From Okamejei kenojei (taxonomy: Eukaryota), in assembly GCA_035221665.1 (NCBI GenBank), contig CM069154.1:5766001-5830000 (forward strand): a DNA stretch of 64,000 bases, written 5' to 3'. Under the pieces are notes generated by a model. The model had not been told where the DNA came from, did no database searches, and saw nothing but the letters and a program-made list of their open reading frames with translations. A program made the position numbers and the translations under genes. Numbering within the stretch: position 1 is the stretch's first letter; every line of letters begins with the position of its first letter. This document shows positions 3,703-54,919 of the stretch, in pieces.

Positions 3703-4457
3703 CTGAAAAACAATCGCACATTTACACTTTACAGTTTGTATACGTTTATATCCAACACACTGTTTATATAGAATTAACATTTTGTCTTTGTCCTTTGGAA
3801 AAGTTGATCCAACATTCTGTGAAGGAACCTGCACAGAGTTTATTGTGGCATGGTCTGGTTTAGTTTAGTTTAGACATACAGCATGGAAACACCATGGCCT
3901 CACTGAGTCCACGCCGACCATTTGTGACGTTTGTGACCAACAGTTTCTGATGACTCTAAGAGAATCTATGATTTGACCATAGATTCAAAAATTGTAGTAA
4001 AACATCTGAGTATTTCTTATTTACAAGCATTATATCAGTCCTTTCTAATAAGGAAAGAAACAAAATGCTGGAGTTCTCAGTGGATTAGGCAACATCTCTG
4101 GATGGTTGGCAACGTTATGAGATGGGACCATTCTTCAGCCTGAAAGCACGTTTAGAGATACATTGTGGAAACAGGCCCTTCGGCCCACCGAGTCCTTGCT
4201 GACCAGCAATCACCCCATACACTAGTTCGATCCTACACACTGGGGACATTAATTACAAAAACTGAATCCAGTTTTATTTCTCAACATTAAGTCCATAATT
4301 CCTCCCTCCATCGTTAACATGCTAGCTAAAGGAAATCGGATTTCTTCCCGACCCGAAACATCACCGCTTCACGTTCTCCACCAATGGACACAAACAGCTG
4401 GAGTAACTCAGCAGCATCTCTGGAGAAAAGGAATAGGTGAAGTTTCGGATCGAGACC

Positions 4458-4673
4458 TGTGGTGTATATTATATAAATGGTGTTACCTGCCTCCAAGTTA
4501 AAGGGGGAGCAGTGTGATGTATGTGATATAATTAGCAAATGTTATGTCTTGTGCGAGGGGACGCATGCGCTGGGGGAGACTCAAGGTGGTGTCCTAGAAT
4601 AAAGAAGCTTGTTAATTTACTCCTGTATCTGAGTGTTCTTTTAAGTCAGTTCCAAGCACCCAAATACACTACA
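4458..4673 (+). repeat. 5' LTR
   Basis: Direct repeat of 7442-7657 (10 mismatches in 216 bp by hand count); TG...CA ends; internal AATAAA. Confidence 0.95.
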
Positions 4674-4675
4674 AT

Positions 4676-4693
4676 TGGCGATGAGGATGGGAT
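4676..4693 (+). promoter_or_regulatory. Primer-binding site complementary to the tRNA-Ser(GCU) 3' end
   Basis: TGGCGATGAGGATGGGAT, 2 nt after the 5' LTR; 17/18 match to the reverse complement of the vertebrate tRNA-Ser(GCU) 3' end plus CCA (recalled sequence). Confidence 0.85.
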
Positions 4694-5287
4694 GGAGTTT
4701 GTGAACTCACCCACAGGACTGTTTTGTAATACGCAGATTGTTTAACAGTTTAAACTGTAGATATGGAGTTGTGTCGCAGTTGCTTGCGAGCTGGACATGA
4801 GAGGCCTGCAGATCCCTCTAAGCATGGGACTGTAGTTTAAAACATCAGCCGTACAAGTCGGCGAGTTTGTCAGGCTATCTCTATGTTGTGTCTATGTGGC
4901 AAGATGTCGTCCTTCGGATTGTGACACATTTTAGACTGAGTTTTTTTTTTGTCGAATTCCTCAAGCTGAATAATCTTTGTACAGCTAAGTTTTAGGTGAA
5001 TTGTTACACCAAAACACACAGCAAGGATAACGAGGCAACGAGGATAAAAGAACAGAAAAGAACAAAGAAGAAGGGCTGTCAAGAAAAAAAAAAGTTAAAA
5101 AGAAGAGGTTGGGTTTGCAAACAAAGTGGAACGGCACTAAGCAAAAAGATTTGGCGCCAAATGGTTTTGAATTGGTGCCAAAGAAAAGAAAGGTCGGAAC
5201 AGGAAGCAAGGAAAACAAGTGGGGCAGTAAGTGTCACCGAAGAACGCAGCCGAAAGCTGGAAGCCTAACCAGCAGGACAGCAACGGT

Positions 5288-5420
5288 GTCAACTTACCTG
5301 GAACGCTTTCCAGGGCCGTTTAGCCTTACGTAAGTTACTGCTGCCAGCAAAGCTCACAGACAAAATGTACGAGGAGTGTAAGGAGGCATTAATGGCTCAT
5401 TTCTCGCCAAAACCTCCAAG
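5288..5420 (+). pseudogene. Gypsy gag N-terminal remnant
   Basis: STYLERF...FSL/LRKLLLPAKLTDKMYEECKEALMAHFSPKP resembles Mag-type Gag (YxER...LLxxLxxPxKPxxKxYxE...LxxHFxPKP), with an internal deletion and a frameshift near 5325. Confidence 0.65.
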
Positions 5421-5467
5421 GGCATCCAGAGGGGAGGAGCCTGAACTAAAGAGGGCAGGGAGTCCCT

Positions 5468-5662
5468 CAAAGGGCAAAAGTCAAAGGCAAAGTAACAAAA
5501 GTCAAGTGCCAAATGATGAAGGTCAAGTGAAAAAGGCCAAAGGTAAAAGGCAAAGTGACAAAAGTCAAGGGCAAAGTGACAAAAATCAAGTGCCAAGTGA
5601 CAAAGGTCAAGTGGAAAAGGCCAAAGGTCAAAGGCAAAGGGACAAAAGTCAACTGCAAAGGG
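5468..5662 (+). repeat. Degenerate 21-bp coding minisatellite (~9 units, GQSDKSQ-like)
   Basis: Repeated GGCAAAGTGACAAAAGTCAAG-like units, in frame between the gag remnant and the IQ repeats. Confidence 0.8.
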
Positions 5663-5664
5663 AT

Positions 5665-6715
5665 ATTGCCGTCCAGAGGGCAACCCTAACTATTCAAGCT
5701 GCATTCAGGGGTATGAAGGTACGGAGACAGATCCGGAACAAACAGAAGGCAGCAACGGTAATACAAACAGCATTTAGAATGCACAGAGTATACTGTCCAT
5801 ACAGGGCAATGAAAATTGCAGCCATAATAGTACAAACCCATTATAGGGCACATCTTCAAATGGAAAGTGATTGCAAAACTGATATGATGGTACGCAGAAG
5901 GGTTGTACGGCTTCAGGCTGCCTACCGAGGAATGCTAGTTCGAAAGCAATTACAGGGCATGCACAAATCTGCCAAGGTCATACAGACTTATTATCAGATC
6001 AGAAACAGCGTCAGTATTTCAAGAAACTACACTGGTCTGCCATTGCAGTACAGCAACGATACAGAGCTTGCCAGATAGGAGACATTATAATAGTTTGAGA
6101 AAAGCAGTGGTTTGTATTCAGGCCTTCTACCTTCTGGGATTAAAGCCAGAGGATTGGTTGAGAAAATCAAGGCAGCACACCATATTAAGGTCAGTCTTAA
6201 TGATGTGCATTACAAGAAAAAATTTCTTGATGCAAACGGCAGCTGTAGTCACTCTGCAAGCTGCATACCGTGGTTACCGATCAAGGGTATGCTACCTGGC
6301 TATGCGACAAACATTCATTTCGATCCAGAGAAGGTACAAAGAATGCAAAATAGGGCATTCCCAGTTTGTGCAATATCAGTCAATGAGGTATGCACCCGTT
6401 ACCATTCAGGCTGCCTACAAGGATATGGTGGTTAGGCAGTGGATTAAGCAAAAGAGGGCTACTGTAAAAGTTCAGTCAGTACTTCGTATGAGTTGTTATA
6501 GGAAAGATCTCAGAAGACAAATAGATGCACAACAGAAAAGGCTGAAACGATACAAAAGGCTTAAACGATATAGGAAAGACTTCCTCAAACTGAAATATAC
6601 CACAGTTGTAGTGCAGTCTCACTACCGTGCTTATGCAGTAAGAAAACTATACAGAGCACAAATCAAAGCCACAGTTGTATTGCAAAGACAACACATATCC
6701 TATTTCTTGATGAAT
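5665..6715 (+). pseudogene. ASPM: Captured ASPM IQ-repeat fragment (frameshifted)
   Basis: Tandem IQ motifs with ASPM-like spacing and composition ([71 protein letters not shown]); several frameshifts between ~5995 and ~6180. Confidence 0.82.
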
Positions 6716-6724
6716 AACCAGAAA

Positions 6725-7237
6725 GGTGATTTAAGAAGACAAATAGATGAACAACAGAAAAGGCTTAAACGATACAAAGAACAGTTAAATAAATGTGTGA
6801 CGATGAGCAAAAAGTTGTTAATAGAAAAGTCTAAAGAAGAGAGGCTTGTCGGTCGAGACAAAGGTATGCAGGACCGATTGCGATTAGGACACTTCACTAT
6901 AGTCCAGCATGGAGCCTCCTTCACTGAGCAATGGACAAATGGTTATGCATTGCAGAATGTTATTGTACAACAAGATCAGATAAACATACAGCGCCAGGAA
7001 ATTGAGCGACAGAGGAAGCTGCTAGAAAACGAAAACCTGCAGTCATGTGTCAGATCCCACCTACAAATAAGGAACAGAAACAAAGGAGATGTTAACTTTA
7101 GCAGAATATCAGGAACAGGAAGAAATCTGCAAATTAGATTAGGATATTTAAAAAGGGAAGAGGCAGAGATCCAGGTAGAACTAGAGTGATTAGAAAGAGT
7201 GCGCAATTTACACAGAAGGGAACGGAAAAGGATAACA
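6725..7237 (+). pseudogene. TLK2: Captured, intronless Tousled-like kinase 2 coiled-coil fragment (no kinase domain)
   Basis: [11 protein letters not shown]...[17 protein letters not shown]...[15 protein letters not shown]...[14 protein letters not shown]...EIERQRK, then in shifted frames [29 protein letters not shown] and [30 protein letters not shown] and RDK favour TLK2 over TLK1. Confidence 0.9.
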
Positions 7238-7428
7238 CATAAAGCAAAGGGTAATGCATGTGATTTAAGGAAGATGAGTGTAATGAAAAATTATAAGTAC
7301 TAAGTTTAGATACGATTATTACAGTTATGTGGATGTAATGTAATTGTAATGTGATTGTAATAACATAAGTTTGCAAGTTAATCAATTATATTTAATGTAA
7401 ACGAAATGGTGTCACCCACTTCCAAGTT

Positions 7429-7440
7429 AAAGGGGGAGCA
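7429..7440 (+). promoter_or_regulatory. Polypurine tract
   Basis: AAAGGGGGAG-type purine run immediately before the 3' LTR. Confidence 0.8.
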
Positions 7441-7441
7441 T

Positions 7442-7657
7442 TGTGGTGTATATTGTATAAATGGTGTTACCTGCCTCCAAGTTAAAGGGGGAGCAGTGTG
7501 ATGTATGTGATATAATTAGCATATGTTATGTCTTGTGCGAGGGGATGCATGCGCTGGGGGAGACTCAAGGTGGCGTCCTAGAATAAAGAAGCTTGTTAGT
7601 TTACTCTTGTATCTGAATATTCTTTTAAGTTAGTTCTAAGCACCCAAATACACTACA
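7442..7657 (+). repeat. 3' LTR
   Basis: Direct repeat of 4458-4673, followed by the AGACC TSD. Confidence 0.95.
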
Positions 7658-7815
7658 AGACCCTTCTCCAGAGATGCTGCCTGGCCTGCTGAGCTACTTC
7701 AGCATTTTGCGTCTTTCCTTGGTAAACCAACATCTGCAGTTCCTTGTTTCTACACCCCTTTTGGTCTTGAGTAGATGGGAGCATCTCATCAGGAAGAAAT
7801 TAAGATTGATCTTAC

Positions 7816-8136
7816 CTTCTGTAACGTTCAGTTGTACTGGAACCATTTTGTCGTAGCCGAATTGCACAATGCCGCACCAGTAAAGCCCTGCATCATTGGC
7901 AGAGAGTTGGGTCACTTTAGTGATAAATTCTCCAGCAGTTTGGTTGTCCACCATTATTATTCTATCGTCAATGTTTTTATGTTGGCTTGCAGAATTGACC
8001 AGAACACTGCAGGATTTCCAATCAGAACCCTTGCACAAGTACTTTTCATGATTCTTGTAATATGCATGATACTGGCACCTTATGGTAACGGCTCCTCCCA
8101 GGGTCCCCGACACTAGCTTCGGCCCAGTTAATGCAG
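7816..8136 (-). CDS. Gene B IgV exon, copy 2 in transcript order (CD300/pIgR-like V domain)
   Basis: 321 nt, phase 1-1, ttgcag acceptor and gtaag donor; GTLGGAVTIRC...KYLCKG..WKSC...DAGLYWCG...VQLNVTE with the extra Cys pair typical of CD300/pIgR/TREM V domains. Confidence 0.88.
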
Positions 8137-9693: not shown

Positions 9694-10588
9694 CTTCGGC
9701 CCACCTAGTCCTTGCTGACCAACAATCACCCCATACACTAGTTCGATCCTACACACTGGGGACAAATTACAAAAACTGAATCCAGTTTTATTTCTCAACA
9801 TTAAGTCCATAATTCCTCCCTCCCTCGTTAACATGCTAGCTAAAGAAAATCGGACTTCTTCCCGACCCGAAACATCACCGCTTCACGTTCTCCACCGATG
9901 GACACAAACAGCTAGAGTAACTCAGCAGCATCTCTGGAGAAAAAGAATAGGTGAAGTTTCGGATCGAGACCCTTCTCCAGAGATGCTGCCTGACCTGCTG
10001 AGCTACTTCAGCATTTTGCATCTTTCCTTAGTAAACCAATATCTGCAGTTCCTTGTTTCTACACCCCTTTTGGTCTTGAGTAGATGGGAGCATCTCATCA
10101 GGAAGAAATTAAGATTGACCTTACCTTCTGTAACGTTCAGTTGTACTGGAACCATTTTGTCGTAGCCGAATTGTGCAATGCCGCACCAGTAAAGCCCTGC
10201 ATCATTGGCAGAGAGTTGGGTCACTTTAGTGATAAATTCTCCAGCAGTTTGGTTGTCCACCATTATTATTCTATTGTCAATGTTTTTATGTTGGTTTGCA
10301 GAATTGACCAGAACACTGCAGGATTTCCAATTAGAACCCTTGCACAAGTACTTCTCATGATTCTTGTAATATGCATGATACTGGCACCTTATGGTAACGG
10401 CTCCTCCCAGGGTCCCCGACACTAGCTTCGGCCCAGTTAATGCAGCTGCAAGTACAAAGCACAGTTGGCAATTACTCAAGAGTCCAGCAAAACGCTTGGA
10501 GGTCATCAGAGGACGAGCACTAATGGCTTATTTTGTTGTCTTGGTTTTTTCCTTTGCACTGTCTTCCTTTGTTTTACGGTCTTGGAGT
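9694..10588. repeat. Segmental duplicate of 4179-4457 plus 7663-8278 (IgV exon and flanking intron), lacking the LTR element
   Basis: ~97-98% identical by hand alignment; single AGACC at 9967-9971 where the other copy has the LTR insertion. Confidence 0.93.
10125..10445 (-). CDS. Gene B IgV exon, copy 1 in transcript order
   Basis: 321 nt, phase 1-1, canonical splice sites; 6 nt / 4 aa different from 7816-8136. Confidence 0.88.
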
Positions 10589-54583: not shown

Positions 54584-54919
54584 CTTCACGAACTTTAAGC
54601 TCCACAGCATATAATGGGTCCAGAAGGTGATACCTTTCTATTCCACACCAATACCAGCCGTTGTCACCGTTTGTTAGCTTCTCCATTTGGATTTTAAGTT
54701 CTCCTTTTTTATTATCAGCTGTTATCGTTATTCTGCCATCTCTGCTTTTCTTACCAGGGCCCTCTGTTTGAACTAAAATCATGCAGTTTCGTCGATAGTA
54801 TCCTTTGCACCAGTACTTCTGTTCGCTGCGGAAATACGTGTGGAATTTGCATGTGATTTCCACTCTGTCTCCCACGGTTCCAGTTGCCACTCTCGGTCCA
54901 TTGATGTCAGCGTGCGTCA
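54584..54919 (-). CDS. Gene A IgV exon (CD300/pIgR/MDIR-like V domain)
   Basis: 336 nt, phase 1-1, ctctcag acceptor and gtaag donor; GTVGDRVEITC...KYWCKG..RRNC...DNGWYWCGI...VELKV. Confidence 0.92.

Follow-up and report, generated by a model that had tools for sequence, protein, structure and literature searches.

The 64,000-nucleotide stretch analysed here (the window; contig CM069154.1 of the skate Okamejei kenojei, positions 5,766,001 to 5,830,000) carries one copy of a long terminal repeat (LTR) retrotransposon family that lacks pol and has pieces of two host genes, ASPM and the tousled-like kinase gene TLK2, fused in frame to a truncated gag. The TLK2 piece is intronless. The family was likely moved by a pol-bearing relative, and the fused frame was likely translated and kept by selection; we place slightly more than even confidence in this account as a whole. 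Over all the explanations weighed below, it is quite probable that active source copies were translated and needed the frame. An earlier reading of the letters alone (the sequence-only reading) had recognised an LTR element with ASPM and TLK2 cargo. It overlooked the in-frame joining of this cargo to gag, the status of the window copy as a dead, deleted member of the youngest subfamily, and the single-exon origin of the ASPM piece, which hides any intron loss.

The family has the features of a non-autonomous LTR retrotransposon, namely LTRs of the form TG...CA with target duplications of 5 bp, a tRNA primer-binding site (PBS) and a polypurine tract (PPT), and many dispersed insertions without pol. 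Copies were searched for in the window's own genome (2.76 Gb), and all counts are floors. The cargo was present in 40/40 best-scored of 1652 candidates from a DNA search with the window element. A protein search with a 103-residue TLK2-like piece gave uninterrupted, intronless matches in 150/150 best-scored of 382 candidates, and a search with the start of gag gave at least 150 matches (the best 150 of 517 candidates). The chimera has at least 150 copies, a typical full-length copy being ~4.4-4.7 kb long with LTRs of 161 bp. Both LTRs are retained in 41 of the 74 copies examined, with a median divergence between the two of 5.4% (range 1.3-15%). The 5-bp target duplication is perfect in 15 of these 41 copies and has one mismatch in 10, and all are distinct sequences; the search for it permitted a few bases of slack. 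Many copies with the same cargo and different target duplications bear out the earlier proposal of a mobile chimera as opposed to a one-off capture. Their separate flanks and own target duplications rule out an assembly artefact, and likewise segmental duplication as the source of the copies. Two near-identical pairs on single contigs are probably segmental duplicates (L083/L084 on C5, at 28.02 and 28.31 Mb, and L172/L175 on C35).

The attribution of the cargo to ASPM and TLK2 held when compared with the host genes. Of the two TLK genes in the host genome, the TLK2-type one aligns with the TLK2 cargo along five consecutive exons at 88-91%, and the TLK1-type one reaches 75-81%. The exon junctions are seamless in 73/74, 75/75, 10/10 and 52/54 of the copies that cover them. 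With five exons joined and four introns gone, this piece was captured from spliced mRNA; it lacks the TLK2 kinase domain and N-terminal region. Host ASPM was located through its ASH domain, and the ASPM cargo corresponds to the final ~1030 coding bases of its giant exon (85-88% nucleotide identity). A piece taken from a single exon cannot reveal the loss of introns; mRNA capture stands for TLK2 and is probable for ASPM. At the ASPM/TLK2 switch point the joined sequences share TGTG at a cysteine codon, and at the switch from TLK2 to the parental 3' untranslated region they share ACACA, both seen by eye and without a chance test. Intron loss in the captured TLK2, short shared sequence at the switch points and absence of poly(A) are the features of an LTR-mediated retrocopy. 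A retrocopy made by a long interspersed nuclear element inside an LTR element was ruled out, since there is no poly(A), pol is replaced and the junctions are in frame.

The giant exon of host ASPM (L065, minus strand, C10:14496001-14506000) has an open frame of 1988 codons with at least four near-identical internal repeats ~657 bases apart. This arrangement suggests that the ASPM IQ repeats of this lineage may have been recently expanded or homogenised.

Outside the window species, XP_055497199.1, a RefSeq protein of Leucoraja erinacea, covers the ASPM/TLK2 junction at 83% identity, so that the chimera predates the window species. This protein is annotated 'tousled-like 2, partial' and is a piece of the retroelement, with ASPM sequence ahead of the TLK2 part; chimera copies inflate the ASPM and TLK2 annotations of skates. 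In two large contig runs from other organisms, the summed depth over the cargo exceeds that over the flanking exon ~100-fold, a figure that is not a copy number. The species range is based on the one L. erinacea protein and on these sequencing runs of other organisms.

Pol-bearing relatives and the probable order of assembly

As the sequence-only reading had stated, the window element has no pol: a Pfam profile search of its two long frames gave no pol match. Weaker gag matches elsewhere in the genome lead to elements in which reverse transcriptase, RNase H and integrase frames lie beside a related gag. In L166 the Pfam order is RVT_1, RT_RNaseH, Integrase_H2C2 and rve, which excludes Copia, and by its motifs we take this parent family to be Ty3/Gypsy (Metaviridae). 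The Retrotrans_gag profile matches the parent at E=0.0023, below the cut-off. The LTR-to-LTR span of the parent is ~5-6 kb (L176), which leaves little room for env, for which no search was made. Every pol-bearing relative seen is broken. Among the best 150 of 9366 integrase candidates, about 40 loci are >55% identical to the parent integrase, fewer than the copies of the chimera.

Parent and chimera share the PBS, the PPT, the gag start and the 3' untranslated stretch (from window 7227 on). The dispersal of pol-less copies, together with a relative that has pol and shares both PBS and PPT, supports the earlier suggestion that the chimera moved in trans as a unit. For the autonomous partner sought in that reading, the pol-bearing relatives are candidates: they share the PBS, but their LTRs are only 69-80% identical to those of the chimera. 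Host mRNAs would have been captured when reverse transcriptase switched templates within the particle, at short shared sequences, and the chimera would have been mobilised in trans by helper enzymes, in line with the known biology of LTR elements (PMC5131818).

Several intermediates are preserved. The middle of gag is deleted in frame in L172 and L175, which retain the zinc knuckles. In L185 the start of ASPM lies in frame behind the zinc knuckles, and a 21-nt repeat is expanding from ASPM sequence; in the common form of the chimera the knuckles are gone. With the host sequence as root, a FastTree phylogeny of 71 real copies (five poorly covered copies excluded, support not examined) is ladder-like, with terminal branches averaging 4.1%. 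Copies without a 72-nt insert are basal, followed by one type of TLK2 linker and then by the youngest type, which includes the window copy. Two motif copies marking the insert are present in 64/76 copies, and the other 12 combine true absences (for example L122-L124) with misses (for example L032). The order of assembly thus appears to have been shortening of gag, addition of ASPM behind the knuckles, loss of the knuckles, addition of TLK2 and later in-frame edits.

Two single copies have cargo fragments copied into the 5' leader (L022, 648-728; L045, 1280-1638), which points to additional template switches inside the family. A related element, L179 (C467:343000-352999), has the same shortened gag and a different, much-expanded 7-codon repeat, twice in tandem; its stretch has no ASPM or TLK2 match.

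The fused reading frame

In full-length copies a single frame runs from the gag start codon through the 21-nt repeat into the ASPM IQ motifs and the TLK2 coiled coils. At the ASPM/TLK2 junction 59/61 copies keep this frame, and the 72-nt insert preserves it. The gag-ASPM spacer is a multiple of 3 in 26/49 copies (modal lengths 156, 177, 198 and 219). The TLK2 linker occurs as three main haplotypes, each with several small indels that sum to a multiple of 3 and leave no stop. Altogether ~8 shared length events all preserve the frame, whereas only 43 of 179 single-copy ASPM indels (24%) do so. The haplotype that reads around an off-frame host TGA still has this codon, and the haplotypes in which it would be read have lost it (one or two events); a second host TGA was lost prior to the linker frameshifts. 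Internal stops of the type CGA>TGA (76) roughly equal CGA>CAA changes (87) and are scattered across clades, as expected for decay after insertion.

Selection was assessed by comparing non-CpG changes common to at least four copies with rare changes, stratified by transition and transversion; unstratified ratios of non-synonymous to synonymous changes were discarded, because recurrent transitions push shared alleles to synonymous. Among the shared changes in TLK2, synonymous ones are in excess (odds ratio 0.26, p=1e-4; 0.23 and 0.25 when shared by 8 and 12 copies). The regions pooled give 0.55 (p=0.001), and shifted frames give 1.3 and 1.65, with no synonymous bias. The shared synonymous TLK2 alleles occur in derived groups and are absent from old ones, and therefore arose within the element; recapture from the host is for the same reason an unlikely cause of the bias. 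Protein-level constraint on the TLK2 coiled coils is, on these comparisons, a somewhat favoured interpretation, and we infer purifying selection on their residues. Changes fixed between host ASPM and all copies are likewise biased to synonymous (0.44). The fixed ASPM amino-acid changes divide into 17 on the host branch, 21 on the element branch and 8 unresolved; with about half on the host branch, this bias is not evidence for the element.

Several observations weigh against a selected, translated frame moved by a helper. Neither ASPM (0.74, p=0.25) nor gag (0.75, p=0.75) has a significant synonymous bias, and none that is significant exists among TLK2 changes fixed in all copies (0.84; 10 non-synonymous, 4 synonymous). 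Copies entered the sample because they resembled either the window copy or TLK protein; they are not mutually independent and may recombine, and the statistics were made without a recombination model. L122-L125 were selected for long in-frame matches, and the frame of these four therefore carries no weight. In L125 there is a stop within the linker. The ASPM part is free of stops and frameshifts in 0/58 copies. The 58 include no intact copy of the kind a domesticated, Bs1-like chimeric host gene would provide; 76 of several hundred candidates were examined. Counted from the gag start, the frame stays open for at most 338 codons in the 52 copies compared. The youngest subfamily has a stop in the last coiled coil (31/33 copies), which makes the frame ~30 codons shorter. 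Because the TLK2 linker is read off-frame, its amino acids are dispensable, and the compound linker frameshifts must have gone through truncated states. At two CpG codons of ASPM, changes to stop predominate (19 vs 6 and 13 vs 4), and five ASPM indels that break the frame are found in 3-6 copies each. As to the helper, 16 LTRs in 30 pol-bearing loci have a median identity of 72% to those of the chimera (best 77%), too low to pin down the actual helper element. Counted on the favourable side, with caveats, is one poly(A) RNA run with 678 family reads among 7.3 million records, mapped at an 88% setting at which host TLK2 or ASPM reads may contribute. These short reads cover all 30 bins, thinly in the IQ part, with the first mate on the minus strand in 26/30 bins, the sense orientation for a library made by the usual stranded protocol. 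At 95% likeness there is almost no depth over the IQ part of the window copy, and this run, possibly of another species, gives no sign of window-copy transcription. Contig runs X1, X5 and X11 were left out of the expression analysis as possibly DNA.

How the frame came to be kept has more than one possible answer. RNAs with long 3' tails are subject to decay, and the frame may have been kept open solely for RNA protection, by translation of a long frame that terminates close to the 3' LTR, with the protein itself idle. Such protection would accommodate the off-frame linker and the loss of the last ~30 codons, with frame and freedom from stops kept, as well as the many amino-acid changes fixed early (21 on the element lineage in ASPM; 10/14 in TLK2). 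It does not predict the synonymous bias of TLK2 (odds ratio 0.23-0.26), and we consider it unlikely. Less probable again is a neutral passenger, in which a short element with good signals in cis was amplified and the in-frame state came from template switches and chance. The absence of significant constraint in ASPM and gag agrees with this, and in the parts of the fly data drawn on here 14/17 young LTR-retrocopies are in frame and non-autonomous elements proliferate readily (PMC5131818). A passenger would not explain why the shared length events keep the frame so much more often than single-copy indels, why an in-frame stop was lost in a haplotype-specific manner, or the TLK2 bias.

The remaining proposals give the cargo a function. 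The kinase-less TLK2 coiled coil could be a decoy that binds host TLK1/TLK2 and loosens heterochromatin, or the cargo could be camouflage from small-RNA silencing; we hold these to be the least probable of the explanations. The published findings drawn on here include dimerisation of TLKs through coiled coil 1 (PMC6023931; PMC11879137), a rise in satellite and some endogenous retrovirus (ERV) expression upon TLK depletion in human cells (PMC7408502), and a discussion of captured essential genes as camouflage in maize (PMC13317346). Constraint is strongest in the TLK2 part, which speaks in favour of a decoy. An anti-silencer acting in trans would, however, benefit all elements and not its carrier, and camouflage needs no reading frame. 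The captured piece also starts at the exon following the one in which coiled coil 1 begins, and the N-terminal part of TLK2 with the nuclear localisation signal is missing from it. A complex prediction for the window TLK2-derived piece with the coiled-coil region of a fish TLK1 scored 0.08 and 0.05 and was not used as evidence.

Under the favoured account of a translated frame kept by selection, the fused frame would be translated in active source copies and held open by selection. The coiled coils and the basic IQ rod may form a self-association scaffold that replaces the lost middle and nucleocapsid of Gag, and such a scaffold would favour the element's own RNA in helper particles. The scaffold is the most likely role and a speculative one, to which we give the smaller part of our belief even if the favoured account is granted. 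The broader notion of a Gag rebuilt from host parts, its hybrid protein selected for the element across amplification waves either to serve as a new scaffold for assembly or to act as a decoy of a heterochromatin-guarding host kinase, is tentative, and we regard it as doubtful.

Related captures in other lineages

The frame of maize Bs1 begins with gag. Gag-onc acutely transforming retroviruses are defective and helper-dependent, with a truncated gag fused in frame to pieces of host proliferation genes. The skate family shares with them the truncated gag, the in-frame pieces of host proliferation genes and the dependence on a helper; it differs in that no env-bearing stage was seen (no env search was made), in its non-catalytic cargo (IQ rod and coiled coil) and in its germ-line spread.

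Capture of host mRNAs by LTR elements is already known from Bs1 and from the retrocopies of Tan et al. (2016), and what is unusual here is the copy number and the maintained Gag fusion. The comparisons that follow concern the portions of the cited papers that were drawn on. In the retrocopies of Tan et al., partial mRNAs replace internal open reading frames between LTRs, with short shared sequence at the switch points, and there are cases with at least two donor genes and further rounds of retroposition, often in frame (PMC5131818). A few of these retrocopies have a Ka/Ks below 0.5, and the multi-site cases in those portions are two fly retrocopies among nine, with 18 insertion sites in total; they include no cartilaginous fish (PMC5131818). 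The skate family, in contrast, has at least 150 copies in successive subfamilies, a cargo fused to gag and a frame kept through edits. Bs1 is likewise a non-autonomous LTR element; its fragments of several host mRNAs make up a single hybrid frame, which in part departs from the frame of a donor (PMC5131818; PMC13317346; PMC7264820). It is a plant element with 1-5 copies that is transcribed and translated, whereas the skate family has at least 150 copies and all those sampled are broken. Crocodilian ERVs with KIT-ligand or nectin3 mRNA are a vertebrate case in which LTR elements carried a host mRNA along as they spread, with purifying selection acting on it; they are retroviral, with one donor each, captured beside or in place of env, and pol is kept (PMC4299795). 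The skate family has two donors, a lost pol, a gag fusion and a non-retroviral parent. A search of a limited collection of papers turned up no account of this family; supplements, Repbase and Dfam were outside its scope, and the family may be catalogued there.

Gene capture by LTR elements is usually viewed as a source of low-copy accidents or of raw material for host genes. The pieces captured here travelled to hundreds of candidate sites, and the genome preserves intermediate stages, which makes the benefit of captured sequence to the transposon testable by molecular evolution. If the fused frame was kept by selection, the stolen pieces helped the element to spread.

The window copy and its insertion site

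The paired LTRs, AGACC duplication, PBS and PPT described by the sequence-only reading were all located (Table 1). The element spans 4458-7657, and its LTRs, both TG...CA, differ at 10 positions. Apart from one C>T change in the window copy, the PBS is the complement of the 3' terminus of tRNA-Ser(GCT) as encoded in this genome; the tRNA-Ser PBS sequence has 17 genomic matches, and 3/3 loci scanned are tRNA-Ser(GCT). The cargo runs in the order ASPM, TLK2-derived insert, ASPM, TLK2. In the two long frames of the window copy, IQ motifs are matched by Pfam PF00612 (E=1.5e-14 and 1.7e-4), and the TLK2 part matches residues 66-168 of the human 5o0y chain (E=1.1e-45).

Table 1. Features of the window element (window positions)
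Feature	Position	Strand	Details
Left target-site duplication AGACC	4453..4457	+	5 bp
5' LTR	4458..4673	+	216 bp; 161-bp family LTR begins at 4513; first 55 bp are a PPT-containing duplication
PBS for tRNA-Ser(GCT)	4676..4693	+	
5' leader	4694..5325	+	Terminates at ~1.55-kb deletion
gag remnant	5326..5469	+	End of N-terminal ~87-codon piece fused in frame to later gag stretch
21-nt (7-codon) tandem repeat	5470..5660	+	At gag/ASPM junction, derived from ASPM sequence; early state visible in L185
ASPM IQ-repeat piece 1	5640..6507	+	From 3' part of giant exon; four frame-breaking indels (~6000, 6078, 6132, 6189)
72-nt in-frame insert	6506..6577	+	Derived from TLK2 piece
ASPM IQ-repeat piece 2	6569..6731	+	
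TLK2 coiled-coil region	6726..7239	+	Five host exons joined, introns gone (6726-6829, 6828-6964, 6967-7087, 7091-7157, 7156-7239); stop codon 7187-7189; linker partly read off-frame
3' untranslated stretch	7227..7423	+	Inherited from pol-bearing parent family
PPT in use by window copy	7424..7438	+	Second PPT at 7479-7493 within long LTR
3' LTR	7442..7657	+	216 bp
Right target-site duplication AGACC	7658..7662	+	

A gag remnant is present, as had been read. Its shortness, however, belongs to the window copy, where a deletion of ~1.55 kb at ~5325 removed the GC-rich leader, the gag start codon and the first ~53 codons; this deletion is absent from the other copies compared. The remnant also lacks the middle of the parent Gag and the zinc knuckles. 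The window LTR is 55 bp longer than that of the family because it begins at the upstream of two tandem PPTs. A 55-bp tandem duplication (window 7404-7515) yields the two PPTs, and use of the upstream one extends both LTRs from 161 to ~216 bp. Such long LTRs occur in 4/41 two-LTR copies from different subfamilies (the window copy, L139, L140 and L159).

The insertion site is a common short repeat. The empty-site motif is matched 13 more times in the window, against a chance expectation of 0, and all 13 hold one copy of the target only. On the minus strand, two immunoglobulin V-set exons with 96% protein identity lie at window 7835-8134 and 10144-10443 (Pfam V-set E=9e-11), which we take by motif to be CD300/pIgR-like. 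The element sits just downstream of these exons in opposite orientation and is probably intronic, and a weaker immunoglobulin V-set copy lies at 54630-54905.

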